Positions 4,145 through 62,803 of a DNA stretch of 64,000 bases are shown here, piece by piece. Made by a program: the position numbers and the translations under genes. The stretch comes from Myxococcales bacterium (GTDB lineage: Bacteria; Myxococcota; UBA727; JABDBI01). Below the pieces are notes generated by a model. It was not told the DNA's origin. It was given only the letters and a program-made list of their open reading frames with translations, and searched no databases. The first letter of the stretch is position 1, and each line of letters begins with the position of its first letter. The stretch is taken from NCBI GenBank assembly GCA_023898405.1, contig CP060221.1, positions 2,322,481 through 2,386,480 of the forward strand, given 5' to 3'.

Positions 4145-4219
4145 GGGCCCGTAGCTCAGCGGTAGAGCATTCGGCTCATAACCGACAGCGCGCTGGTTCG
4201 AATCCGGCCGGGCCCACCA
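4145..4219 (+). tRNA. tRNA-Met (anticodon CAU); an elongator Met or Ile2-lysidine type.
   Basis: Cloverleaf folded by hand. Acceptor GGGCCCG/CGGGCCC, anticodon loop CTCATAA, T-arm GGTTCGAATCC, 3' CCA encoded. G1-C72 argues against an initiator tRNA. Confidence 0.8.
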
Positions 4220-11049: not shown

Positions 11050-11124
11050 GCTGACGTAGCTCAACGGTAGAGCGCCTGCCTTGTAAGCAGGGGGTTGCGG
11101 GTTCGAATCCCATCGTCAGCTCCA
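11050..11124 (+). tRNA. tRNA-Thr (UGU).
   Basis: Manual cloverleaf. Anticodon loop CTTGTAA. T-arm GGTTCGAATCC. CCA encoded. Confidence 0.8.
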
Positions 11125-11139
11125 AAATTTATTTTTTTT

Positions 11140-11225
<86 letters not shown>

Positions 11226-11229
11226 GGAT

Positions 11230-11305
11230 GCGGGAGTAGCTCAGTTGGTAGAGCGTCAGCCTTCCAAGCTGAATGTCGCGGGTTCGAATCCCGTCTCCCG
11301 CTCCA
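11230..11305 (+). tRNA. tRNA-Gly (UCC).
   Basis: Acceptor GCGGGAG/CTCCCGC. Anticodon loop CTTCCAA. CCA encoded. Confidence 0.8.
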
Positions 11306-11314
11306 TTTTTGTAG

Positions 11315-11390
<76 letters not shown>

Positions 11391-11393
11391 TTT

Positions 11394-11421
11394 GAAATGC
11401 TGTATTAGGGCATTTTTTTTA
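11394..11421 (+). terminator. Rho-independent terminator after the tRNA cluster, at the position where tuf normally sits.
   Basis: Hairpin AAATGC-tgtattagg-GCATTT followed by a T8 run. Confidence 0.55.
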
Positions 11422-11475
11422 TTATTTGGCTCGCCTTCATTTGGCTTTTGAGTTATGAGTAGAGAGTGCAATTGT

Positions 11476-11551
11476 AGGTCACTAGCTCAACTGGTAGAGC
11501 ACCGGTCTCCAAAACCGGGGGTTGGGGGTTCGATTCCCTCGTGGCCTGCCA
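11476..11551 (+). tRNA. tRNA-Trp (CCA).
   Basis: Acceptor AGGTCAC/GTGGCCT. Anticodon loop CTCCAAA. T-arm GGTTCGATTCC. CCA encoded. Located immediately upstream of secE, as in the canonical cluster. Confidence 0.8.
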
Positions 11552-17989: not shown

Positions 17990-18556
17990 TCAATTTTGAA
18001 TGAGAGATTTTTCGCGCATCCAGTCTAGGGCGGTTTTATTATTTTCATGAGCAGCGACTTTTTGTGGTGTCCACCCATCGCTGTCCTCTGCCAAAAAATT
18101 ACCACCATGCTGGTATAAAAGGTTAAAAATTTCAGTTTCGGAATGCCTTCTTACTGCGATATGAACGGGCGTCCATCCTTTATAAAAACAGCCGTGAGAG
18201 TTGACGGTATCTTCTAAAGTCGCGTTTGGATCGGCTCCATTCTCAAGTAAAAGCCTAAGTATTTCAATGTTTACTTTTTTATACCTAAGAAGATTATGAA
18301 GGGGACTAAAACCATGCTTTAGACGGCAATTTAAGATATTTTCTCTTTGACTATCGGTAAGACGAGAAATAAAATTCTCAACCTTTTGATCATTGTTTTT
18401 GCTTATCAGACCATTAAGAGTTTTTCCATCTAGGGGCTGAGCAGAATGGCGGGAGTAATGATTTTGTGAACGATGCCTTCTTTGGGAAGTATTTGATGCG
18501 TGTAGAAGAGACGAACAAAAAAATAGGGTGCCAAGCACCAAGACTAAGTTTTTCAT
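17990..18556 (-). CDS. Secreted ankyrin-repeat protein.
   Basis: Signal peptide. Ankyrin repeats (GFSPLHNLL..., GWTPVHIAVRRHSETEIFNLLYQHGGN, DGWTPQKVAA). Confidence 0.7.
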   Translation of the reverse strand: MKNLVLVLGTLFFCSSLLHASNTSQRRHRSQNHYSRHSAQPLDGKTLNGLISKNNDQKVENFISRLTDSQRENILNCRLKHGFSPLHNLLRYKKVNIEILRLLLENGADPNATLEDTVNSHGCFYKGWTPVHIAVRRHSETEIFNLLYQHGGNFLAEDSDGWTPQKVAAHENNKTALDWMREKSLIQN

Positions 18557-20111: not shown

Positions 20112-20609
20112 TTATTTAGTTGGAGTTTTCTGTGGTGTCTGTGGAGGCCTCATATACATGTGTCCTCTTCCATGATGCATCATCCAATCTTGATTGTTTT
20201 GGTGCATTGGCATTGGAGCTGAATAGTTATGCATTGGATGTGGTTGAGGTAGTGTCTGGGGTTTTAAGGTTTTTGCAGGCTCATCGGGATCGGCAGATTG
20301 GTCTGGTTGATAACCATACATGTGCATGAAGGGCATGCTGCTTCCCATGTGATGCTGGTGCCAAGGCTCATTCATCATTAAGGGATGGGGAAAGTTCCAA
20401 GAGGAGCCTTCATCGTTCATGATGATAGAGTGTGAGCTTAAGAAGCTTAGGTAGCCAAGGCCCACAAAGGCGATGAGGGTAACTAAAAATCCTAGCACTT
20501 TTGCTAGAATAACACCGCGACCATGCGAGCGATAAGCCCAGATGCTGATCGATACTCCAAGAGTAAAAGTAATTAAACCTAAAAAAAATGCTGCGATAAT
20601 GGTAATCAT
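20112..20609 (-). CDS. Small membrane protein with a Met/His-rich C-terminal tail; a putative Cu/metal-binding protein.
   Basis: Two N-terminal TM helices. The tail is rich in HxxM/MxM/MH motifs (HQHHMGSSMPFMHMY, MPMHQNNQDWMMHHGRGHMYM). Confidence 0.45.
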   Translation of the reverse strand: MITIIAAFFLGLITFTLGVSISIWAYRSHGRGVILAKVLGFLVTLIAFVGLGYLSFLSSHSIIMNDEGSSWNFPHPLMMNEPWHQHHMGSSMPFMHMYGYQPDQSADPDEPAKTLKPQTLPQPHPMHNYSAPMPMHQNNQDWMMHHGRGHMYMRPPQTPQKTPTK

Positions 20610-20998
20610 ATGTATGTTCTTTTGAATTGATTAAAAAACTACGCTCGTTATCCTATTAAAAACCCAGATCTGAAACATTAAAAAATAGGATCATTTAGAC
20701 TGAATATTTCTAATTTATTGATTTAGAGACTGTTTTGAAAATAGTTTTTCGCTAACCAAAGAAAGCATTTTTTGACCACTATCACGTGTCATTACCTCTA
20801 TCCCCTGTCATCCACGCGCAGGTGGGGAAGCAAATAGAGGGTCATAGTTGCTCTTTTAGTTCAATGAGTGACACTTTTTTTAACTATGCAGCACTATCGG
20901 CTCTATTTCTATATTCAAAAAGAAACGGCTGACTTTATGTCGGAGGTAGCAATGACTTGTTTCATAGGAGTTATATGGCAAGCGAAGAAGTTATTTAC

Positions 20999-21150
20999 AT
21001 GGAATGATTTATATTTTCATTTTTACTAGACAGTTAGCTGTTTTTGCTGGATCCCCGCCTGCGCGGGGATGACAAGTGATAATAGTCAAAATGATGGGTG
21101 GTCGAGCACACCTTAGTTTGGTTAAACAAATCAAGGAGATTTTCAAAAGA
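20999..21150. repeat. Copy A of a ~150-bp dispersed repeat (MITE-like) containing the GC-rich palindrome GGATCCCCGCCTGCGCGGGGATGACAAG.
   Basis: Aligns at roughly 88% identity with 62461-62564 (inverted) and with 62596-62700 (direct). Confidence 0.55.
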
Positions 21151-21280
21151 CTAAGAATAACTGCCTGCTTATACTTAATTTTTATATTCATTTAGCAATT
21201 GCATATATTTTGCTAGCACGGCTTAACAACACCATTTTGATTTTCCAAACAGTCTTTTGAAGATTGTTTTGAAAATAGGG

Positions 21281-23923
21281 TTAACAGCCAGTATCGATTT
21301 CAAAACAATAAAGGTGTCTTGGTTGATTGCAATTTCCAACCCCGTAGTGAATCCAAACGGGACCAGCATAGTTTGAGCGTCCTCGATAGCCTCGATGGAA
21401 TTGTTTTGCAGATGTCCAGTTGTTGCAGTTATTGGATAGTTCAGCGGTACCATCAGGTTTGGTGCCGGTCCAAACGAAATTATTGCCCACATTATTGCCG
21501 AATTCGTCTACATTTATAGCTTGGTCTAAAACTCCATCAAAGAGATCAGCTTTGCTGTGTGCTATGACATTCGGTGGCCCACTGAGCATGACCCAGGCTT
21601 TATCGTTGCAGTTTATTAATCTGTCAAATGCATTAGAGGTGTCATCAGAGATAAGAGCTACCCAGGTACCTCCTAGTGAAGCAGCATCTGCTCTCGCTTG
21701 GCACAATGAATCAGCAGTGACAACTTCTAGTGTTGTTTCGCTGTTATTAAATTTTTTGGAGTTTCCAAAAGAACCGTCATAGGTTGTACTTGTAATAAAT
21801 ACATTGAGGGTTGATGGGGCACAATCATCATCAAATTCATCGATATTATCGTCGCAGTCATCGTCGATACCATTATCGCAGATTTCTACGCCAGGAGTAC
21901 CAGAGCAGACACCGCCACTGCATACATCGCCGCTCGTACATGTCATTCCATCATCGCAAGGAGAAGTATTATTGGGGTGAGTACAATTGCCGAGTTGGCA
22001 GTAGTCATCAGTGCAAACGTTGGTGTCAGCAGTGCAAGGAGTGCCATTAGTTAGAGGAGTGAATTGGCAACTACCCAAGAAACACGCACCTGTGGTGCAT
22101 TCATTGCCATCATCACAAATTATGGCGGTACTGTTACATATTCCTGCGCTGCACAAATCATTGGTGCATGCATCGCCGTCGGAGCAAATATTGCTATCGT
22201 CATTTGTGCTGAGACATGACCCTGCACTGCATGCATCGTCGGTGCAATCATTGCCATCAGAACAGGTATTGCTATCGTTGTTAGTAGCATTGCACAGCGT
22301 GGCGAGGCATGTGTTATCGGTGCAAGGATTTCCATCGTCTTGACACGTAGTTCCTGTAGGGCAATCGAGAGTATCAAGACAATCGACTAACAAGTCTCCG
22401 TCGTTATCTACGCCATCATCGCAGATTTCTCCGCCGCAATCGGGGTCAAGTCCATCGATTAAACCATCGCAATCATCATCTATGCCGTTAGCGCAATTTT
22501 CTATTCCTGGTGTTCCCGCACAAACACCATCGGTACAAATATCGCTTGATGTACAGGCCTGGCCATCATCACAAGAAGTTCCATTGGAGACATTGGTTGA
22601 TTGGCAGGTTCCTGTTATCAAACATATGTCAGTAGTGCACTGATTAGAATCAGTGCATAGATTGGCATCGTTACCTTGATTTACGCAAAAACCTGTTGAT
22701 GGATCGCATGTGTCGTCTGTGCAGCTTTCACTATCGTTACAATCTATTGCCACAGCTCCAAGGCAAGATCCTGCACTGCAACTTTCACCGGTGGTGCAGA
22801 GGTCGCCGTCTTCACAACTTTGTGCATCGCAATCTGGGTCTTCACAATCTATGAGTCCGTCAAAATCATTGTCGATCAAATCGCTGCAGTTAGTTTCATC
22901 GAGATAGCAATCCCCTCCACAAACACATCCGGTAGGGACAGGAGTAGCACCATCACATTCTTCATAAGGGCGATTAAAAGCCAAACCATCGAGGCCATCC
23001 TGCACGAGTGTTGCAGGGAGCTTTATAAATGAAAACTCTCCAGTTGTTGTATTAAAAGTGCCGAGATAATTCTCTGAAGGAGAGGACATACCTGAAGCTT
23101 TATTGTTGATGGAAGCATAAATAATACCCGTTAAAAAATCAGCTTCCAGGCCATTGGTACGTGGACGGTTATTGGCAGGGTCAAAGAAAATCAAATCGGT
23201 TATGGGGGTAGCCATTCCTGTTGAGGTATCAAGTTTCGAGAGCTTAAAATTACCGGCTTGATAAAGAGGTTGAGATGGGTAGGTAGGAAACTCGGCAAAA
23301 GTAAGGCCATTGCCTATTTCAGCTTGGGCAAAATTGGGATCACCAACTTCGGTATAAGCGCCAGTGCTGACATTTATTGTACCGAGCCTGTCTTCGTTAA
23401 CACTGTTTTGTGGACTTTGTTTTTTATAAACGAATAATTGCCCGTATTGATTAAAGCTCATATCAGTCAGAGCGGTGCCTGTTGCTAAAGCCACTCCAGT
23501 TTGTCCAATCACGGTGGCTTGCGCAGTTTGGCAATCGATGGTCATTAGAATACTTTTGTTATTGTAGGGATTTTGTGTACCAGTACCGAGAGCATAGAGC
23601 ACGCCTTCAGGAGAAAAATCGAGACTTGTAACCCTTCGAATCTGCATTCCTGTGCCGCTTTGGGCTATAGCTCCAATATCGATTACTTGTCCATCATAGG
23701 CATTGACTGCATAGAGATGGCTTTGAGTCTGTGGGTTGATAGAGTCAGTCGCATAGAGTTTGTATGGGCAATTAGGGTTCATAAAGTTGTAGGGCAATAC
23801 TTCTTGAATTCCGTTGCCGCAGCCGCAAACCTGAGCAGATTCACCTTCATCTGATTTCTTTGCGTTAAGTGCAGAGGCAAAAGTAATCGATAATAAAAAT
23901 AGTGCTACAAAAAAACGCATCAC
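21281..23923 (-). CDS. Secreted cysteine-rich repeat protein, 880 aa, paralog 1. Beta-propeller-like N-terminal region, MopE-like metal-binding motifs, Myxococcus-type Cys repeats, C-terminal C-type-lectin-like (DUF1554-like) domain.
   Basis: Signal peptide MMRFFVALFLLSITFASALNA. Four CxxG(I/V)D(N/D)DCDGxxD motifs. About 10 repeats of the C(T/S)DDxC...G.C type. C-terminal WIHYG...C...LYCFE lectin-fold pattern. Confidence 0.7.
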   Translation of the reverse strand: MMRFFVALFLLSITFASALNAKKSDEGESAQVCGCGNGIQEVLPYNFMNPNCPYKLYATDSINPQTQSHLYAVNAYDGQVIDIGAIAQSGTGMQIRRVTSLDFSPEGVLYALGTGTQNPYNNKSILMTIDCQTAQATVIGQTGVALATGTALTDMSFNQYGQLFVYKKQSPQNSVNEDRLGTINVSTGAYTEVGDPNFAQAEIGNGLTFAEFPTYPSQPLYQAGNFKLSKLDTSTGMATPITDLIFFDPANNRPRTNGLEADFLTGIIYASINNKASGMSSPSENYLGTFNTTTGEFSFIKLPATLVQDGLDGLAFNRPYEECDGATPVPTGCVCGGDCYLDETNCSDLIDNDFDGLIDCEDPDCDAQSCEDGDLCTTGESCSAGSCLGAVAIDCNDSESCTDDTCDPSTGFCVNQGNDANLCTDSNQCTTDICLITGTCQSTNVSNGTSCDDGQACTSSDICTDGVCAGTPGIENCANGIDDDCDGLIDGLDPDCGGEICDDGVDNDGDLLVDCLDTLDCPTGTTCQDDGNPCTDNTCLATLCNATNNDSNTCSDGNDCTDDACSAGSCLSTNDDSNICSDGDACTNDLCSAGICNSTAIICDDGNECTTGACFLGSCQFTPLTNGTPCTADTNVCTDDYCQLGNCTHPNNTSPCDDGMTCTSGDVCSGGVCSGTPGVEICDNGIDDDCDDNIDEFDDDCAPSTLNVFITSTTYDGSFGNSKKFNNSETTLEVVTADSLCQARADAASLGGTWVALISDDTSNAFDRLINCNDKAWVMLSGPPNVIAHSKADLFDGVLDQAINVDEFGNNVGNNFVWTGTKPDGTAELSNNCNNWTSAKQFHRGYRGRSNYAGPVWIHYGVGNCNQPRHLYCFEIDTGC

Positions 23924-24094
23924 GATTTGCTCTTTATGTTTTATGTGACTGTCTTATGGTACAAATTTTATTGTGATAATTCTAAAAAATAGTTTTGTTT
24001 TAAAGATTTTTTATTTTTATTAGCATATATCGATTAAATTACGTGTTTAATCATCGTTAGTGCTGTCTGAATTTTATGTTGAAATATTGTTTTT

Positions 24095-26701
24095 CTAACA
24101 GCCAGTATCGATTTCAAAGCAATAGAGGTGTCTTGTTTGATTGCAGTTATTCGAGCCGTAATGGATCCAGTAATTATCAGTATAGAACGAGCGCCCTAAG
24201 TAACCCCTTTGAGTGTTACTCCCTGAGCTCCAATTGTTACAGTTAAAAGATGGCTCAAACGTGCCATCGATTTTTGTTCCGGTCCAAACGAAATTATTGC
24301 CCACATTATTGCCGAATTCGTCTACATTTATAGCTTGGTCTAAAACTCCATCAAAGAGATCAGCTTTGCTGTGAGCTATTATATTGGGTGGGCCGCTCAG
24401 TAAAATCCATGACTTATCGTTACAATTGAGCACTCGATCAAAAGCATTGGAAGTATTATCAGATATCATTGCTACCCATGTTCCACCCAAAGATTGTGAA
24501 TCAGCTCGTGCTTGGCATAAGCCATCTGCCCCTGAGACTCCACCTAAGTTTCCATTATAGCTTGTACTGGAAACAAATACCCTTAGGTTTTCTGCAAAGC
24601 AATCATCATCAAATTCATCGATATTATCGTCGCAGTCATCGTCGATACCATTATCGCAGATTTCTACGCCAGGAGTACCAGAGCAGACACCGCCACTGCA
24701 TACATCGCCGCTCGTACATGTCATTCCATCATCGCAAGGAGAAGTATTATTGGGGTGAGTACAATTGCCGAGTTGGCAGTAGTCATCAGTGCAAACGTTG
24801 GTGTCAGCAGTGCAAGGAGTGCCATTAGTTAGAGGAGTGAATTGGCAACTACCCAAGAAGCACGCACCTATGGTGCATTCATTGCCATCATCACAAATTA
24901 TGGCGGTACTGTTACATATTCCTGTGCTGCACAAATCATTGGTGCATGCATCGCCGTCGGAGCAAATATTGCTATCGTCATTTGTGCTGAGACATGACCC
25001 TGCACTGCATGCATCGTCGGTGCAATCATTGCCATCAGAACAGGTATTGCTATCGTTGTTAGTAGCATTGCACAGCGTGGCGAGGCATGTGTTATCGGTG
25101 CAAGGATTTCCATCGTCTTGACACGTAGTTCCTGTAGGGCAATCGAGAGTATCAAGACAATCGACTAACAAGTCTCCGTCGTTATCTACGCCATCATCGC
25201 AGATTTCTCCGCCGCAATCGGGGTCAAGTCCATCGATTAAACCATCGCAATCATCATCTATGCCGTTAGCGCAATTTTCTATTCCTGGTGTTCCCGCACA
25301 AACACCATCGGTACAAATATCGCTTGATGTACAGGCCTGGCCATCATCACAAGAAGTTCCATTGGAGACATTGGTTGATTGGCAGGTTCCTGTTATCAAA
25401 CATATGTCAGTAGTGCACTGATTAGAATCAGTGCATAGATTGGCATCGTTACCTTGATTTACGCAAAAACCTGTTGATGGATCGCATGTGTCGTCTGTGC
25501 AGCTTTCACTATCGTTACAATCTATTGCCACAGCTCCAAGGCAAGATCCTGCACTGCAACTTTCACCGGTGGTGCAGAGGTCGCCGTCTTCACAACTTTG
25601 TGCATCGCAATCTGGGTCTTCACAATCTATGAGTCCGTCAAAATCATTGTCGATCAAATCGCTGCAGTTAGTTTCATCGAGATAGCAATCCCCTCCACAA
25701 ACACATCCGGTAGGGACAGGAGTAGCACCATCACATTCTTCATAAGGGCGATTAAAAGCCAAACCATCGAGGCCATCCTGCACGAGTGTTGCAGGGAGCT
25801 TTATAAATGAAAACTCTCCAGTTGTTGTATTAAAAGTGCCGAGATAATTCTCTGAAGGAGAGGACATACCTGAAGCTTTATTGTTGATGGAAGCATAAAT
25901 AATACCCGTTAAAAAATCAGCTTCCAGGCCATTGGTACGTGGACGGTTATTGGCAGGGTCAAAGAAAATCAAATCGGTTATGGGGGTAGCCATTCCTGTT
26001 GAGGTATCAAGTTTCGAGAGCTTAAAATTACCGGCTTGATAAAGAGGTTGAGATGGGTAGGTAGGAAACTCGGCAAAAGTAAGGCCATTGCCTATTTCAG
26101 CTTGGGCAAAATTGGGATCACCAACTTCGGTATAAGCGCCAGTGCTGACATTTATTGTACCGAGCCTGTCTTCGTTAACACTGTTTTGTGGACTTTGTTT
26201 TTTATAAACGAATAATTGCCCGTATTGATTAAAGCTCATATCAGTCAGAGCGGTGCCTGTTGCTAAAGCCACTCCAGTTTGTCCAATCACGGTGGCTTGC
26301 GCAGTTTGGCAATCGATGGTCATTAGAATACTTTTGTTATTGTAGGGATTTTGTGTACCAGTACCGAGAGCATAGAGCACGCCTTCAGGAGAAAAATCGA
26401 GACTTGTAACCCTTAGAATAGGCATAGCGGTACCTGTTTCTGCTATAGCTCCAATATCGATCATTTGCCCATCGTAAGTATTGACAGCAAAGAGGTGACT
26501 TTGACTCAGTGGGTTAATAGTATTTGTTGCATAGAGTTTGTATGGGCAATTAGGGTTCATAAAGTTGTAGGGCAATACTTCTTGAATTCCGTTGCCGCAG
26601 CCGCAAACCTGAGCAGATTCACCTTCATCTGATTTCTTTGCGTTAAGTGCAGAGGCAAAAGTAATCGATAATAAAAATAGTGCTACCAAAAAACGCATCA
26701 C
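24095..26701 (-). CDS. Secreted cysteine-rich repeat protein, 868 aa, paralog 2. Same architecture as paralog 1 but with a divergent N-terminal patch and a divergent C-terminal lectin-like domain.
   Basis: As for paralog 1. C-terminal domain is about 65% identical to paralog 1 (my by-eye estimate from the two C-terminal sequences). The central ~600 aa are identical. Confidence 0.7.
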   Translation of the reverse strand: MMRFLVALFLLSITFASALNAKKSDEGESAQVCGCGNGIQEVLPYNFMNPNCPYKLYATNTINPLSQSHLFAVNTYDGQMIDIGAIAETGTAMPILRVTSLDFSPEGVLYALGTGTQNPYNNKSILMTIDCQTAQATVIGQTGVALATGTALTDMSFNQYGQLFVYKKQSPQNSVNEDRLGTINVSTGAYTEVGDPNFAQAEIGNGLTFAEFPTYPSQPLYQAGNFKLSKLDTSTGMATPITDLIFFDPANNRPRTNGLEADFLTGIIYASINNKASGMSSPSENYLGTFNTTTGEFSFIKLPATLVQDGLDGLAFNRPYEECDGATPVPTGCVCGGDCYLDETNCSDLIDNDFDGLIDCEDPDCDAQSCEDGDLCTTGESCSAGSCLGAVAIDCNDSESCTDDTCDPSTGFCVNQGNDANLCTDSNQCTTDICLITGTCQSTNVSNGTSCDDGQACTSSDICTDGVCAGTPGIENCANGIDDDCDGLIDGLDPDCGGEICDDGVDNDGDLLVDCLDTLDCPTGTTCQDDGNPCTDNTCLATLCNATNNDSNTCSDGNDCTDDACSAGSCLSTNDDSNICSDGDACTNDLCSTGICNSTAIICDDGNECTIGACFLGSCQFTPLTNGTPCTADTNVCTDDYCQLGNCTHPNNTSPCDDGMTCTSGDVCSGGVCSGTPGVEICDNGIDDDCDDNIDEFDDDCFAENLRVFVSSTSYNGNLGGVSGADGLCQARADSQSLGGTWVAMISDNTSNAFDRVLNCNDKSWILLSGPPNIIAHSKADLFDGVLDQAINVDEFGNNVGNNFVWTGTKIDGTFEPSFNCNNWSSGSNTQRGYLGRSFYTDNYWIHYGSNNCNQTRHLYCFEIDTGC

Positions 26702-26886
26702 GATTTGCTCTTTATGTTTTATGTGACTGTCTTATGATACCAATTTTATTGTGATAATTCTAAAAATATGAACTTACACTGGTTTTAAAAGATAAAAAAT
26801 AAAACCCTTTTTGTTTAAAATTACTCCAGTGATTTTAAATAAATAACTGCAATAAAGAAAAAAGGGTTTTTATGGGCACTGTAGAA

Positions 26887-43256: not shown

Positions 43257-44161
43257 GAGGCTGTAAAAAAAATCAAATCTCAGGTGGTAAGCCAATTTTC
43301 CAATCGTCTGATACATAATCTTGCATTAGCGATGTAGTTCATTGATTCCTGATGCTTTGTATTCTTCTCATAGTTACGCACCAGACGCCTATTTCGATTC
43401 AGCCAAGCAAAAGTTCGTTCTACGGCCCAACGAAATATTTGTGGTACAAACCCCTTTTGCCCTTTTAAACGTTCCGCAGTTTCTGTGCTTACGCCTACTC
43501 TCAAGCCTGAAGACAAATTCTTATATGCGTTATCTCCAAGAATCTTCGCTAATCTGGGAAACTTCTCGCGCTTATTGAGCTCAGTAACCAATTCCTCGCC
43601 GGCAACCCTATCAGATACATTTGCTGCGGTACAAATGCATAGGAGCATCAATCCCATCGTATCAACAACGATGTGGCGCTTTCTTCCATTAATCTTCTTT
43701 CCCCCATCCAAACCACGCTCATCTACTCCTGGTTCCGCTGTCTGTGATTGGGAGTCGATGGAAACAAGTGAGGGGCTTGCATCTCTGCCAGCACAGGTTC
43801 TGACTATTGCCACGAGAATGCAGTTTAAGACCGCCCACAAACCAGAAACAGACCAGGTGCGAAAATAGTGATAGACAATACCGTGAGGAGGAAAGTCATT
43901 GGGTAAACAACGCCACACACAGCCGTTCTTTAAAACATAGAATATGGCATCAACTATGCTCCGAAAGCTATAGACACGACGTCTGCCTCGTTTGGCGTTA
44001 GCAGGAAAAAGTGGCTCAATCACTTCCCAGGCACAATCTGACAAACAGGTCTCATACAAGCACGACATGATATTTCCTTTCAAAAAGGTTTTCACGTCAT
44101 ACTTTCGTCACAGCGACATTTATTGAACCAGAATTGCCAAATTGATTTTTTTTACAGCCTC
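43257..44161 (-). mobile_element. IS5-family insertion sequence, 905 bp, with 20-bp terminal inverted repeats and a 3-bp TTA target-site duplication.
   Basis: IRL GAGGCTGTAAAAAAAATCAA at 43257-43276 is the reverse complement of IRR at 44142-44161. TTA at 43254-43256 and at 44162-44164. A single transposase ORF lies inside. Confidence 0.75.
43280..44095 (-). CDS. IS5-family DDE transposase.
   Basis: 271 aa. N-terminal LSDCAWEVIEPLFP...RSIVDAIFYVLKNGCVWRCLP is typical of IS5/IS427-group transposases. Confidence 0.8.
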   Translation of the reverse strand: MKTFLKGNIMSCLYETCLSDCAWEVIEPLFPANAKRGRRRVYSFRSIVDAIFYVLKNGCVWRCLPNDFPPHGIVYHYFRTWSVSGLWAVLNCILVAIVRTCAGRDASPSLVSIDSQSQTAEPGVDERGLDGGKKINGRKRHIVVDTMGLMLLCICTAANVSDRVAGEELVTELNKREKFPRLAKILGDNAYKNLSSGLRVGVSTETAERLKGQKGFVPQIFRWAVERTFAWLNRNRRLVRNYEKNTKHQESMNYIANARLCIRRLENWLTT

Positions 44162-53592: not shown

Positions 53593-54027
53593 ATGAAATC
53601 TCATTTAGTGATGCTGATTCTTATGTTTTTTTTACCAGGCCATTTTGTAATAGCGGGACATGCAGATAAAAATACAGCGGATAAAACGGCTGGGCCAACA
53701 TATTCTGAAATAGCTCAAATAATTATTACGGAAATTGAGCTTTATGAATATGTCCTGAATGCTTGTTTGGGGTGTAAAGTGTGCAGGGCGTGGAAAAAAC
53801 TTATTGGCTCAGACAAGAGTAATCATGTAGAAACTCGGCTTGATGAACTTGTTCAGCTCAAAAATAGTATTACTAAAACTAATTTTAATGAGCGCCAAAA
53901 AAAATCTCAGTTTAAAGAGAGATTTGAAGCGATGTATAGACGTAAAGAATTTTCTGGGAAGTTTGGCCAGGCATTTTTTAAAAATATCACGACACAAGCC
54001 TGGTTAAAGAAATCAAAAGACCAATAA
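53593..54027 (+). CDS. Secreted hypothetical protein.
   Basis: Signal peptide MKSHLVMLILMFFLPGHFVIAG. GAGGAAAA RBS. Confidence 0.4.
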   Translation: MKSHLVMLILMFFLPGHFVIAGHADKNTADKTAGPTYSEIAQIIITEIELYEYVLNACLGCKVCRAWKKLIGSDKSNHVETRLDELVQLKNSITKTNFNERQKKSQFKERFEAMYRRKEFSGKFGQAFFKNITTQAWLKKSKDQ

Positions 54028-54151
54028 CTGTTTGCTTATACTAATCTTTTATATTTATTTAGCGATTGTTACTATTTCGCTAAAACGGCTTAGAAACGCT
54101 GCTATTTTGATTTTTTAAACAGTCTCTAAGTACAAGCAATGTGTCGATCTA

Positions 54152-56368: not shown

Positions 56369-56893
56369 ATGTTTACCAAGTTGCTTGCGAAAATTAGTGC
56401 CGATGTAGCATTGAGAGCTAGCATAAGTTTTATGCTTACGTGTTTTATGGGGCAGGCGATTCATGCTGCGACCGATTCAACAACTATGAATGTGACGGCA
56501 ACCGTACAGGCCACCTGTGTATTTGATTCTATTGTAGATTCTGGTTTTGGCAATATTTCAGGACTATTTACTGCAGATGCGGATATTTCTTCTGGTTCAA
56601 TCAGTGTTCAATGTACCAATTTGGCTGGCTATTCGATTGGCATTGATAATGGGAGTAATTTTTTGGTAAATCGTCGAATGGCATTTAGTGGAAATTTTAT
56701 TAATTATGAACTCTATCAAGATTCTGGATATACCCAGGTTTGGGGGGATATTAGTTCGGGTAATGAGAAATTACTGCAAGTGGGGGATGGAGCAGTACAA
56801 GCTCATACAGTGTATGCAAGAATTCCTTCAGGACAAAGTCCAGCTGGTGCAGGTTCTTATTCTGATCAGGTCACAGTGACTGTAAATTTTTAA
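56369..56893 (+). CDS. Spore-coat-U (SCPU) domain pilin, CsuA/B-like.
   Basis: Signal peptide. Conserved Cys pair. YELYQDSGYTQVWGD signature (YxLYxD). Confidence 0.6.
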   Translation: MFTKLLAKISADVALRASISFMLTCFMGQAIHAATDSTTMNVTATVQATCVFDSIVDSGFGNISGLFTADADISSGSISVQCTNLAGYSIGIDNGSNFLVNRRMAFSGNFINYELYQDSGYTQVWGDISSGNEKLLQVGDGAVQAHTVYARIPSGQSPAGAGSYSDQVTVTVNF

Positions 56894-57414
56894 AAAGTGA
56901 CCGTAACTTGGATGGTTTGGCTATAACTGCCAGCGGTGACCGTTTGTGATGCTGGAATGCGCCCGTAAATAATGTGGTCTGAACTGCAGCTACGAGGGCC
57001 ACAAACAATTATTATGGGGCAAGTCTGCGAACAGGATCCACTTACGGTGGAAGTTCCATTGAGGCCATCACCAAATATATTGGTGTGATTTATATCTGTA
57101 TACAAATTGTATAATAATTGCGATGAACTTGGTCCGCTCATATATCTTTGAGTGGGGGGATTGCCATCAAATCCACCACTAATGGTATAGCTCGCTGACA
57201 AATCAGAGAGTCCACCACTGCTGCATGATACTGTAACGGTAGCTTGGCTATCTGTGGGGCTAGCAGTTGAAAATTGATAGTTTCCAAAAGGCATATTGGT
57301 AGTAGCAATGGTACAGGTACAAGGGGCGGTTCCGTTGCAAGTTGAAAAAACTACTTTGCTCGATAGTAAGATTATGATCGAGATGAAAATAATATTAGAA
57401 TGTGCACGTAACAT
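56890..57414 (-). CDS. SCPU-domain pilus subunit (minor or tip subunit).
   Basis: Signal peptide. YNLYTDINHTNIFGD signature. Last gene of the chaperone-usher operon on the minus strand. Confidence 0.55.
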   Translation of the reverse strand: MLRAHSNIIFISIIILLSSKVVFSTCNGTAPCTCTIATTNMPFGNYQFSTASPTDSQATVTVSCSSGGLSDLSASYTISGGFDGNPPTQRYMSGPSSSQLLYNLYTDINHTNIFGDGLNGTSTVSGSCSQTCPIIIVCGPRSCSSDHIIYGRIPASQTVTAGSYSQTIQVTVTF

Positions 57415-59677
57415 TACCTAAATCCTCTAAAATATCTTGTGATTTTTTAGGAAGCTTTATTTCAAATCCGCATTTCGGTTCAGTCAGTTTGCCTGAGTAG
57501 GTTGATAGAGAAGAAGGAACATTGAGATATACCAAACCATCATTGGCCACAAACCCACTTTCACTGCCATCATTTGAGTAAATCCTTGTGCCTGCAAGAG
57601 CGGCTTTCCCGTTGATAACTAAGCGAAATAAAACATGTCGAACTGTTTTTACCAAAAAATCTACTCGGTGCGCTGATTTATATCCAGGCACAAAAATAGA
57701 ATTTTTATTGAGGTCTTCGATTTCAATATGAGAGTCAAGATTTTTTGAATTAATGCTAAGCCTGGTAGGTTGATAAGGGGGTAAGTCGCTTAGGATTAGG
57801 TGCCCATCTGCATTGGTTTGGCCGAGATATACTGAGTTGTCTTTATAGATTTCAATCTCTTTTTGCATGGGGATATTTATGAGCGTAATGCCTTTTTCAA
57901 TTGGTTTCGAATAAAAAAATTGATTTTCAATGACGCCAAAAGAGCCATCAAATTGTCCCAAGTATGAGAGTGATTCTTTACTGGCTTGAACATCAAGCCT
58001 GCTGCGCATGTAATTATTGCCAAAGCCAATATTTCCATGTCCCATAATCTTGCGTTCAAATTGGGCCATCAAGGCATATGATAGGCGATTATTTCGATTA
58101 TTATCGGCGCTTTTATAATAACTTGCTGCTGATGAATAACTGCCATCATTTTTTTGTACTCCTAGAGACATAGAGTGCCGGTTCGCGGGCGTGTATGAAA
58201 AATACAAAAAAAAGTCAAAATTATTTTGGTTGAAGTTATAGGTGCTGCTTAAGTGTAGATTTAAATTTCCATCCAAAAAGAGAGCTTGTTTAAGGCCGAT
58301 AGAATGATAATCATCATCCTCACCACGGCTAAATAAATAATTTATGGAAGAGTGCTGCAGGTAAGTTTTGTTGAGGCGAAATGCACTTGAAATTCTCAAT
58401 TTTTGTTTGTTAATTTTTTTTAAAGGGGAGGAGGGGAAATCTTTGGATACCAAAACTCCTCTTGAGCTCCAGTAAATGTCAAATTTTCTCAGGTTGAATT
58501 CAGCTGCAACAAGATAACCAGAGTTTTTTTCCCTCATCCCCAAGCCCAAAGCTATCGCTGCGGAACCAAAATCAAATAGTCTAAAACGATTTTCTGCCCC
58601 TAAAGAAAAAAGAGTCCTCCCAATTAAAGAATAGAATGAGGGGGTCCAAAAATCTGCTACTCCAATTTTGTGGTTGCCAATGAAAATGGGTTCACCATAT
58701 GAAAAACTTTTAACGCCGTAGTCTTTTCGCAAAAAGCCAAAGCTATAGCTGAAAGCAGAAAGACCTGGCTTTAAAATTTCTGGATCAGCAAAATATGAAA
58801 AGGGAATAACGCTGGCAATTCCTGATTTATCTTTAACTATGAGCTTTCCGCTCTGCGCGCCGCTAGGTAAATTTAAATTATCTAGAATAAATTTCCCTGT
58901 ATCTAAATTATTTTTATGTCTGAGATTTTCATTGATCCAAATTTCTGCGCTTCCTGGCATATGTGCCACTCCAGAAAGCTCTGTGGTGGGATAACTTAAA
59001 AAGCCGCTCTGAAATGAAAAATTTTTAACAATTTTTAAACCACCGCAAGCAAAAAGCCCGCCCCAACTTGGCGCATCAGTGGCATAATCGCCAACGATGA
59101 GTCGCATATTATTTTTATAGAGATCTAGATTATACGAAGTCTCGAGCCGAACAATATTGTTATAAGTACCGTTAGTCGTACTAAATTGATTAGAAAGAGC
59201 GCCAAATGGAGTGGCAAAAACTGGGTGATGGGCGCTTTCAAAAGAAATATTATTTGTGTTTATAGCGTGATGCAGGCTTAGGTGATGATTCCAGTAAAAA
59301 GCGTAAGTGAGATCGTTGACTTCAACACTTGGCGCCTGAAAATCAATTCTATTTGTGGTTAAATATTTTGATGGTATTTCTAGTCGCAAACTAAGATCAG
59401 ACATGGAAAGCTCTTTTTTAATGTCCTTTGGAAGCAAATAGAGAGATTCATTATTAATTAATTTACTGCTAAGAATATCTGATTGTAAGTGTAGTAAATT
59501 TATTAAGTCATGTTTGATCCAGTAATCATGATTTTGATCAAGTATTTCATGCACTCCATCTATCTTGTTTTGGTTTGCATAAACATCAAGATAAAGCTGT
59601 TGGGTGGCATCGTTACTTTTGCAGAGCCCTGCGGTGTTAAATGAAATAAATAGTGTAAAAAATATTCTTACAAACAT
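57395..59677 (-). CDS. Outer-membrane fimbrial usher protein (Csu/sigma-type chaperone-usher pathway).
   Basis: 760 aa. Signal peptide. Beta-rich, Tyr/Phe/Asn-rich composition. Position between chaperone and SCPU subunit genes. Confidence 0.55.
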   Translation of the reverse strand: MFVRIFFTLFISFNTAGLCKSNDATQQLYLDVYANQNKIDGVHEILDQNHDYWIKHDLINLLHLQSDILSSKLINNESLYLLPKDIKKELSMSDLSLRLEIPSKYLTTNRIDFQAPSVEVNDLTYAFYWNHHLSLHHAINTNNISFESAHHPVFATPFGALSNQFSTTNGTYNNIVRLETSYNLDLYKNNMRLIVGDYATDAPSWGGLFACGGLKIVKNFSFQSGFLSYPTTELSGVAHMPGSAEIWINENLRHKNNLDTGKFILDNLNLPSGAQSGKLIVKDKSGIASVIPFSYFADPEILKPGLSAFSYSFGFLRKDYGVKSFSYGEPIFIGNHKIGVADFWTPSFYSLIGRTLFSLGAENRFRLFDFGSAAIALGLGMREKNSGYLVAAEFNLRKFDIYWSSRGVLVSKDFPSSPLKKINKQKLRISSAFRLNKTYLQHSSINYLFSRGEDDDYHSIGLKQALFLDGNLNLHLSSTYNFNQNNFDFFLYFSYTPANRHSMSLGVQKNDGSYSSAASYYKSADNNRNNRLSYALMAQFERKIMGHGNIGFGNNYMRSRLDVQASKESLSYLGQFDGSFGVIENQFFYSKPIEKGITLINIPMQKEIEIYKDNSVYLGQTNADGHLILSDLPPYQPTRLSINSKNLDSHIEIEDLNKNSIFVPGYKSAHRVDFLVKTVRHVLFRLVINGKAALAGTRIYSNDGSESGFVANDGLVYLNVPSSLSTYSGKLTEPKCGFEIKLPKKSQDILEDLGNVTCTF

Positions 59678-59679
59678 AT

Positions 59680-60402
59680 TTATTTTATTTCACTTTTTAT
59701 TATTGGGATAGAAATGGAGTTTTTTTGGTTAGACGATGAATAATCTATCGTTAGGTTTTTAGGAGTTGCATCATTTTTTAAAGGTATTTCCCAAGAATAA
59801 AAGCTTCCCGGTAAAATATAACGCAATTCCTTAAAGCTCATAGGGCTTATATTAGTCGTCGTTAGGTTCTCAAGTACTATGTGTTTATTTGAATTATTGC
59901 TTAATGTTAATTCTATTTGTTTTTTATCCTTTTGGATGATGGCTTTCCATTGAAGCTGCTCATCAAATTTAAAATTATCAGCATAAATAAATAGAGGAAT
60001 GCTTATTTTTAGGTTAAATATAAATCCATTTTTATTTTTTTTGTTGTTTGAAATTTGATTGAAATAAACTCTATAAGAGGCTTCTTTTTGTAGATCAGCT
60101 TTAGTGCTTAATATAATTCTAAATTTTTGTTTTGATTGGGCTGAAATCTTAGCAGTAACCGGCAATATCAATATATCCTTGGTATCTTCATATATATCTT
60201 GTCCATTTTTTTGGCTCCAACGCTTAAGTGAGGCCTCAAAGAAAACATCTTCATTACCTTTGTTTTCTAAGCTCATCTCTTGGATAGAGTTTTTGGGAGA
60301 TAGATCAATTTTTGTTGGGCTTATAGCAATTTTTCCATGAAGATTGAATGCTAATATAAAGCTGGGCCACAGTTTGCTCATGAATAATTTTATCTTTCTC
60401 AT
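59680..60402 (-). CDS. Periplasmic pilus chaperone (PapD-like).
   Basis: 240 aa with signal peptide. Immediately upstream of the usher with a 2-nt gap. Confidence 0.5.
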   Translation of the reverse strand: MRKIKLFMSKLWPSFILAFNLHGKIAISPTKIDLSPKNSIQEMSLENKGNEDVFFEASLKRWSQKNGQDIYEDTKDILILPVTAKISAQSKQKFRIILSTKADLQKEASYRVYFNQISNNKKNKNGFIFNLKISIPLFIYADNFKFDEQLQWKAIIQKDKKQIELTLSNNSNKHIVLENLTTTNISPMSFKELRYILPGSFYSWEIPLKNDATPKNLTIDYSSSNQKNSISIPIIKSEIK

Positions 60403-62336: not shown

Positions 62337-62460
62337 CTCTTAGCTACTTCATCCCTTGTTTAAAAATCAAAATGGCGTTGTTAAGCCGTTTTAGAAAAAT
62401 ATTTACGATTGCTAAATGAATATAAAAATTAGCAGAAGCAAATAAATGCTCATAGTCTTT

Positions 62461-62564
62461 TGAAAGTCTCTTTGATTTGTTTAACCAAACCAAGGTGTGC
62501 TCGACTATCCATCGTTTTGACCATTATTCTTGTCATCGCCGCGCAGGCGGGGAGAGCAATGACT
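62461..62564 (-). repeat. Copy B1 (right-half, inverted) of the ~150-bp palindrome-bearing repeat.
   Basis: Reverse complement aligns with 21053-21146, including the CCCCGCCTGCGCGG core. Confidence 0.55.
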
Positions 62565-62595
62565 CGTCTCGAAGGGTTTACGGCAAGAGAATAAG

Positions 62596-62700
62596 CTCTT
62601 TACAGGGAATGATTTATATTATTCATTTTAACTAGACGGTTAAGCATTTTGCCTGGATCCCCGCGATAGGGATAATGGTCAAAATGACACATGATAGTGG
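62596..62700 (+). repeat. Copy B2 (left half plus partial right half, direct) of the same repeat.
   Basis: Aligns with 20999-21095. There is an internal deletion across the palindrome. Confidence 0.5.
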
Positions 62701-62803
62701 ACAAAAATGATTTCTTTGATTAGCGAAAAATTATTTTTAATACACTCTTTAAGCTTTGACCTCAAAAAATAACTAATGCCGTTACGAAACAATAGTTTTA
62801 ATT

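Follow-up and report, generated by a model that had tools for sequence, protein, structure and literature searches.

Organisation of the locus

The window analysed here, i.e. the whole 64-kb stretch of contig CP060221.1 (GenBank assembly GCA_023898405.1) whose positions serve as coordinates throughout, comes from an uncultured bacterium and carries on its minus strand a tandem pair of related genes, called here gene A (the downstream copy) and gene B (the upstream copy). Both genes had been noticed in an initial annotation of the window as adjacent minus-strand genes of 880 and 868 aa, and both are recovered as open reading frames (ORFs). The two proteins share one architecture, with a signal peptide, a beta-propeller, a Cys/Asp-rich stalk and a DUF1554/endostatin-like domain. 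A base-by-base comparison of both genes resolves them into the following segments.

21281..23923, minus strand: gene A, ORF of 880 aa, NCBI USN50695.1, matching cluster member P0122
24095..26701, minus strand: gene B, ORF of 868 aa, NCBI USN50696.1, matching cluster member P0121
26529..26766, minus strand: B copy of the shared 5' block, codons 1-57 (signal peptide and mature start) preceded by about 65 nt of upstream sequence
23751..23988, minus strand: shared 5' block, A copy, 238 nt, three mismatches with B (23909, 23959, 23963)
26415..26528, minus strand: divergent patch, B copy, codons 58-96, 29 of 114 nt different from A
23637..23750, minus strand: divergent patch, A copy, codons 58-96
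24600..26414, minus strand: homogenised central block, B copy, codons 97-701 (remaining propeller and entire Cys/Asp-rich stalk)
21822..23636, minus strand: homogenised central block, A copy, 1815 nt, three mismatches with B
24095..24599, minus strand: divergent C-terminal DUF1554/endostatin-like domain, B copy, 505 nt
21281..21821, minus strand: divergent C-terminal endostatin-like domain, A copy, 541 nt, with a 12-residue loop insertion
21465..21559 (A) and 24279..24373 (B), minus strand: identical island within the C-terminal domain, 95 bp, no mismatch
23989..24094, minus strand: B-to-A intergenic spacer, unique, found neither downstream of A nor upstream of B

The initial annotation had placed the central block at these same coordinates and had recognised a block of about 240 bp covering the promoter, the 5' untranslated region and the signal peptide. 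Both placements agree with our comparison, but neither block is byte-identical as had been claimed, with three mismatches found in each. Those of the central block lie at 22082, 22092 and 22147, all inside 66 nt, and two of the three are nonsynonymous; one of those in the 5' block results in the F5L difference in the signal peptide. The 3' edge of the central block (A copy) coincides with the last Cys codon of the stalk and thus with a domain boundary. A promoter-like -10 sequence (TAAAAT) lies inside the shared 5' block, and the near-identity of the upstream and 5' sequences suggests that A and B could be co-regulated. The divergent N-terminal patch, announced at about 120 bp, measures 114 bp. 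The C-terminal domain is divergent as described, but the previous estimate of about 65% aa identity was low, the value being 74-75% over aligned positions and 69% when the 12-residue indel is counted; at the nucleotide level, the identity of this segment is about 52-74% outside the 95-nt island. This island was absent from the earlier account, as were the 36-nt insertion in A (21725-21760, i.e. residues 722-733) and the unrelated flanks: the sequences downstream of A and B are unrelated, and the upstream similarity ends about 65-70 nt before the start codons.

The mosaic is far beyond chance. The longest run of identity between A and B reaches 1489 nt. When the variable sites were permuted 100,000 times, no permutation (0/100,000) attained this length and the longest run obtained was 192 nt.

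At the start of the genes, codons 3-5 form a homopolymer with seven T in A (23905-23915) and six T then G in B (26683-26693), which corresponds to the F5L difference. No evidence was found for phase variation by this T run in either gene, and a phase-variation reading of the locus is not supported. The plus-strand ORFs found inside the repeat (e.g., 22011-22343) were taken as shadows of the coding strand.

Age of the segments and selection

Synonymous (dS) and nonsynonymous (dN) divergence between A and B was calculated by the Nei-Gojobori method, segment by segment, with omega being dN/dS and pS the proportion of synonymous differences.

Codons 1-57: dS 0, dN 0.008
Codons 58-96 (patch): dS 1.09, dN 0.167, omega 0.15
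Codons 97-330: dS 0, dN 0
Codons 331-701 (stalk): dS 0.01, dN 0.002
Codons 702-785: dS saturated (pS 0.85), dN 0.254
Codons 786-818 (island): dS 0.11, dN 0.013
Codons 819-880: dS about 3, dN 0.25

The dS is 0.005 for the whole central block and 1.76 (or saturated) for the whole C-terminal domain, where dN is 0.197 and omega 0.11. Since adjacent segments thus differ more than 200-fold in synonymous divergence, the mosaic cannot have been caused by selection on the protein. Because dS exceeds 1 or is saturated and omega lies at 0.11-0.15 in the divergent ends, the patch and the C-terminal domain are old and evolve under purifying rather than diversifying selection. Diversifying selection acting on the tips, as put forward in the initial annotation, is contradicted by these ratios (0.15 for the patch, 0.11 for the C-terminal domain) and by the position of the differences, 98 of the 175 mismatches between A and B being at third codon positions. 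For the same reason, with dS above 1 and omega near 0.1, the creation of the tips by positive selection after a recent duplication is ruled out. The A-side bases at the mismatches are C 57, A 44, T 42 and G 32, spread over 540 nt, so the A/B substitution spectrum has no adenine bias.

Predicted domains of the two proteins

The N-terminus reads as a Sec signal peptide, MMRFFVALFLLSITFASA followed by LN, with a cleavage between ASA and LN at an AxA-type site and no lipobox Cys; secretion of A and B by this route is a prediction from the sequence. Residues about 26-330 are modelled as an all-beta propeller with a predicted local distance difference test score (pLDDT) of 79, the structural matches being generic Kelch/TolB ones at a template modelling score (TM) of about 0.48. 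The matches to Pfam DUF4394 stay below the cutoff (23 and 18.7 bits vs 29.6). A profile of the propeller domain retrieved 14,606 representative proteins at E <= 0.001. Among the eight top matches that were sampled, six carry DUF4394 and/or DUF6923 above the Pfam cutoffs (one of them also with a PEP-CTERM anchor), one is sub-threshold and one has neither. Model and profile together indicate that the N-terminal propeller would belong to the DUF4394/DUF6923 superfamily, its own Pfam score being sub-threshold. The divergent patch (codons 58-96) corresponds approximately to the first blade of this propeller (model strands E31-35 to E69-78).

The 371 residues of the stalk (331-701) include 55 Cys and 80 Asp+Glu and not a single Lys or Arg, and the stalk is presumably disulfide-bonded. 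It contains four C-x-[DNG]-x-[IV]-D-[ND]-D motifs and resembles, below the cutoffs, the acidic double-disulfide repeat NF033662 (35.8-35.9 bits, cutoff 41) and Dicty_CTDC (19.7-21.6 bits, cutoff 27), so that both are to be read as resemblance only. The four repeats of this acidic double-disulfide type probably bind Ca2+.

The C-terminal domain of B matches Pfam DUF1554 (PF07588) with 44.7 bits for a cutoff of 27.5. That of A gives no Pfam DUF1554 match at E <= 0.01, though it is 74% identical to the domain of B. The AlphaFold2 model of the C-terminal domain has a pLDDT of 94.7 and its best matches in the PDB are the endostatins 1koe, 1dy1 and 1bnl (E about 3e-12, TM 0.75-0.76), with Foldseek aligning it to 1koe at E 2.5e-12, TM 0.76 and a root-mean-square deviation of 2.7 Å. 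The Pfam Endostatin match itself is below the cutoff (20.2 vs 29.4 bits). No match to Lectin_C (PF00059) was obtained at E <= 0.01, and C-type lectin structures match the model only weakly (E 0.04-5, TM about 0.3). The C-type-lectin-like domain of the initial annotation is hence correct for the superfamily fold, but the model specifies an endostatin fold of the DUF1554 family: by this model, the domain is lectin-like at the superfamily-fold level only and is not a canonical C-type lectin.

The protein stops right after the DUF1554 domain, and no cell-surface anchor motif was recognised when the sequence ends were read, which leaves the word adhesin, used in the initial annotation, as a guess. 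By analogy with the Len proteins of Leptospira, A and B may bind ligands.

The loop between the first strand and the first helix of the endostatin-like domain carries insertions that vary in length and sequence in A and in the homologs P0007, P0011 and P0152; it looks like a hot spot of length variation in the domain family.

Relatives of the pair

Full-length homologs are rare, only 11 clusters being found at >= 96% coverage among 5.8 billion proteins, the closest of them 60% identical. This closest relative (P0002) and a second one at 50% identity (P0003) are each followed by an unrelated gene for a thrombospondin-type-3-like repeat protein. P0003 is single-copy, with unrelated genes both upstream and downstream, and its neighbourhood shares with the window the NusG/ribosomal-protein cluster (about 71% nucleotide identity), TruB, enoyl-CoA hydratase and an ankyrin-repeat protein. 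Only 133 nt precede the start codon on the contig of P0002, where a further gene copy upstream is therefore possible. For the patch, the aa identities to P0002 and P0003 are 59% and 50% for A and 46% and 34% for B.

The sole other tandem pair found belongs to a more distant relative and lies on contig L048 (7124-12757, P0008 then P0007), where the two genes have about 72% nucleotide identity in patches and are diverged throughout. The homogenisation is consequently a trait of the A/B lineage and not of the family. In both pairs the upstream gene is without the loop insertion and the downstream gene has it. An ancestral pair of long-loop and short-loop genes shared with L048 was considered and rejected: the trees separate A+B from P0007/P0008, and the loop is also expanded in P0152 and P0011. 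The loop insertions of the two pairs are therefore independent. An S8 peptidase gene lies directly after the L048 pair.

Neighbour-joining trees with bootstrap were built for several segments, with P0002 as the one moderately close outgroup. A and B group together with 100% bootstrap in the propeller, in the whole C-terminal domain and in codons 819-880. For codons 702-785, B groups with P0002 in 61% of the replicates and with A in 30%, and the dN between A and B (0.254) is close to that between B and P0002 (0.244), again with this single outgroup of moderate closeness. The depth of this segment would point to an old duplication. As a whole, the relatives fit a duplication that is old in the A/B lineage and whose middle was homogenised again and again.

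The single-domain word-index searches of protein databases were poorly sensitive (40 and 1493 candidates), as neither the query's own cluster nor known full-length homologs were among them. Such a search with the C-terminal domain of B gave nothing closer than 44% identity, a weak result for a search that did not recover the query's own cluster. In metagenomes, the scan with the C-terminal profile gave no confirmed relative and that with a degenerate TDMSF[ND]QYG pattern gave one chance match. Among the matches listed for a contig scan with protein B, only distant Cys-repeat proteins were present, from metagenome-assembled genomes of Myxococcota and Bdellovibrionota.

The repeat in independent assemblies

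Three other assemblies of essentially the same organism, which are 99.96-100% identical to the window, were compared with the locus. The ENA scaffold L044 corresponds to window positions 24333-19107 with two mismatches and covers the 3' end of B, the spacer and the whole of A; it keeps the A-type bases at all three variant sites of the central block and terminates at 24333, inside the B copy of the 95-bp island. P0001 is the A protein as encoded on an independent ENA scaffold. The GenBank contig L051 (GCA_020430645.1) corresponds to 21948-14547, its end lying exactly 127 nt within the central block, and the Logan contig L053 is 100% identical to 35379-26707 and breaks off after 30 nt of a 49-nt stretch common to both 5' blocks. 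Assemblies that cover the tips carry the same tips, L044 having the A patch, the A C-terminal domain and the 3' end of B, and L051 the A C-terminal domain.

An assembly or polishing artefact, in which either a repeat was falsely duplicated or diverged copies were made identical by consensus polishing, could be suspected from the fact that the complete two-copy arrangement is present in one assembly only and that the short-read assemblies all break in or beside the repeat. The breaks are, however, where a true two-copy repeat predicts them, since the contigs run on into shared sequence for 127 nt and 30 nt, lengths that match k-mer sizes. Moreover, the 3' end of B, the spacer and the complete A with its three private bases are connected independently in L044, and the differences between A and B are frame-preserving and consistent with selection (the 36-nt indel, the third-position bias). 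A false duplication of the repeat is unlikely, and we regard an artefact of either kind as highly improbable.

Origin of the mosaic

Our preferred explanation, to which we give a probability of about 0.72, is that A and B are old tandem paralogs undergoing partial gene conversion. An ancient tandem duplication would have produced the two genes, its antiquity following from the saturation of synonymous sites in the unconverted parts, and non-reciprocal homologous recombination between the direct repeats would since then have transferred, time and again, stretches of sequence from one gene to the other. The homogenisation by recombination proposed in the initial annotation is in good agreement with the contrast in dS between the central block (0.005), the patch (1.1) and the C-terminal domain (1.8 or saturated). 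The shared blocks belong to several age classes, which speaks for a series of conversion events spread over time and not for a single one. With dS about 0, the propeller body and the larger part of the stalk would be the youngest tracts; those of the promoter/5' end and of the 66-nt piece of the stalk, where the cluster of mismatches suggests abutting tracts, would be slightly older. The 95-bp island would be a separate, short and still older conversion tract (dS 0.11). Approximately blade 1 of the propeller and the greater part of the endostatin-like domain would have long escaped conversion, either by selection for two binding specificities or by a divergence of >= 25-30% that blocks heteroduplex extension, and these ends would thereby have been kept apart. 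Mosaic, tiered dS, purifying selection on the tips and predicted folds are the results of our analyses, and recombination is the mechanism by which we propose to connect them.

Several points weigh against this explanation. No conversion event was seen directly in a population or a time series, and two sequences with one outgroup at 60% identity do not settle the direction and number of the events. Both tips are about equidistant from this outgroup, which is compatible with import from another lineage. The central block of B is present in the NCBI assembly only, and short-read polishing, if this is a long-read assembly, could slightly inflate the identity. Finally, function is read from folds, and no anchor or secretion-system signal was identified.

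The equidistance of the tips from P0002 (dN 0.355 vs 0.333 for the patch, 0.63 vs 0.65 for codons 819-880) is one reason to consider a recent tandem duplication of the whole gene followed by replacement of the patch and C-terminal segments of one copy with imported, diverged homologous DNA. Such a history is also compatible with the pattern of near-identical and old blocks, and with the single copy of P0003 and the unrelated gene after P0002. It needs, however, at least three separate imports whose end points would lie in sequence from which the donor differs by more than 25%, and at such divergence RecA-dependent exchange has a very low efficiency. The graded ages of the shared blocks (0, 0.01 and 0.11) are left unexplained by import, and no donor-like allele was met in the protein database or metagenome scans, these searches being of limited sensitivity. 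Import is therefore less parsimonious than gene conversion, and we consider it unlikely.

The initial annotation had favoured a programmed variation, with a cassette- or hypermutation-type variable adhesin locus whose tips would be under diversifying selection and switched by recombination. A conserved scaffold with variable ends, the tandem position of A and B and the C-type-lectin superfamily fold of the C-terminal domain are in keeping with such a locus, this fold being a classic target of diversity-generating retroelements. The data go in the opposite direction: the omega of the tips is 0.11-0.15 with saturated dS, the copies number two only, both are full-length and preceded by an upstream region of their own, none of the three domains was found again within the window, and the other assemblies covering the tips (L044, L051) show the same tips. 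A scan of the ORFs of >= 150 aa at 12-64 kb of the window revealed no reverse transcriptase, invertase or site-specific recombinase. A diversity-generating retroelement was rejected on the lack of adenine bias and of a reverse transcriptase among these ORFs, and a cassette antigenic variation of the pilE/pilS, vlsE or msp2 type on the presence of two complete genes and no silent cassette in the window. The cassette interpretation is thus rejected, and a programmed variation of any kind seems very improbable to us.

Within the explanation by partial gene conversion, it could further be imagined that two regions separated by about 1.9 kb of the gene, approximately blade 1 and the endostatin-like domain, are co-adapted as one functional head and that conversion is tolerated elsewhere. 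We put this forward as a speculative and rather doubtful idea; such a co-adapted head may mean a mutual contact or a common ligand. If it were true, the pair would represent a natural concerted evolution shaped domain by domain, with two specificities on one scaffold.

Genomic surroundings

The non-coding stretch downstream of A (20723-21255) recurs at 62357-62752 and 54013-54125 with 77-85% nucleotide identity, partly inverted, and includes a GC-rich hairpin, CCCCGCGCAGGCGGGG. From its sequence it looks like a small dispersed element of the kind of miniature inverted-repeat transposable elements (MITE) or repetitive extragenic palindromes (REP). Rfam gave nothing in this dispersed repeat and only tRNAs in the window. 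The sole mobile-element gene seen in the window encodes an IS4/IS5-family DDE transposase (DUF4096 + DDE_Tnp_1; 43280-44095, minus strand), about 16 kb from the pair. Between A and an enoyl-CoA hydratase gene lies a 165-aa ORF (20112-20609, minus strand) with two hydrophobic N-terminal segments and no Pfam match; its His/Met/Pro-rich tail makes metal binding possible.

Elsewhere in the window, a chaperone-usher pilus cluster (56369-60402) comprises two SCPU (spore coat protein U) subunit genes, an usher and a PapD-like chaperone, and a cluster of five tRNA genes (11050-11548) lies upstream of nusG and ribosomal-protein genes (rplA/rplJ/rplL region), with a sixth tRNA gene at 4145-4216. Ankyrin-repeat proteins are encoded in the window (17990-18556) and on related contigs, and one relative (L049) has a weak match to a type III secretion system needle protein. 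The window has a G+C content of about 31-45% (about 39% overall), and the genome, labelled Myxococcales, has a largest contig of 2,515,055 bp and is unusually small. Both a size of 2.5 Mb and about 31-45% G+C are atypical for Myxococcales, and the source lineage may be taxonomically misplaced or host-associated.

Comparison with known systems and significance

The pattern of A and B matches almost point for point that of ligA/ligB of Leptospira, tandem genes that are identical from -266 to +1890 with minor coding differences and have gene-specific C-terminal parts; the explanation accepted for them is a gene conversion to which their tandem position is favourable, together with a shared regulation (PMC7821625). 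In both cases tandem paralogs encode large secreted or surface proteins with a shared upstream and 5' part and unique C-termini. The domains are different, however, the Lig proteins consisting of Big_2 repeats and A and B of a propeller, a Cys-rich stalk and an endostatin-like domain. Furthermore, the lig genes have one identical block, whereas A and B have at least three shared blocks of different age, interrupted by the old 114-bp patch, and ligA is a truncated derivative whereas A and B are both full-length.

The closest parallel for the C-terminal domain is given by the Len paralogs (LenA-F), which are assigned to DUF1554/PF07588 (PMC2387172) and have an endostatin-like fold (PMC2063517). 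They are outer-surface proteins and, like A and B, paralogs with this C-terminal family and predicted fold; recombination exchanged Len motifs and left the leader and flanks untouched, and the proteins bind laminin, fibronectin and factor H with affinities that differ among paralogs (PMC2063517). According to these papers, Len proteins are lipoproteins of about 25-50 kDa with one or two Len motifs. In A and B, in contrast, the domain caps a protein of about 870 aa with a propeller and a stalk, the lipobox is lacking, the source is an environmental uncultured bacterium and a binding role is here suggested by analogy. Mammalian endostatin, the NC1 domain of collagens XVIII and XV, has the same fold as the C-terminal domain of A and B at 16-20% sequence identity, and there is no collagen context in A and B.

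In Helicobacter pylori, the babA/babB and homA/homB genes undergo segment-wise concerted evolution by intragenomic recombination and the divergent segment carries the specificity, as reported in PMC2795765, which cites Pride and Blaser 2002. As in A and B, some segments of the paralogs are homogenised and another stays divergent. The bab and hom loci are, however, dispersed, their divergent segment is central and their allelic diversity is linked by the authors to antigenic variation (PMC2795765), whereas A and B are in tandem with divergent parts near the ends and under purifying selection.

No new mechanism is thus involved, the process being established for ligA/ligB, the bab and hom genes and the Len genes. 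The statement of the initial annotation that such a pattern is undescribed does not stand in general, in view of ligA/ligB (PMC7821625) and Len (PMC2063517), and is valid for the exact domain architecture only.

The consequence for the organism is the possession of two proteins with one scaffold and different heads. In this uncultured bacterium, the pair offers a clean and quantifiable example of tandem paralogs with partial gene conversion, whose tracts fall into at least four age tiers. For this uncharacterised family, the mosaic marks the probable specificity-determining parts, approximately the first propeller blade and the endostatin-like domain, and could in this way steer binding experiments on DUF1554 and DUF4394 domains.

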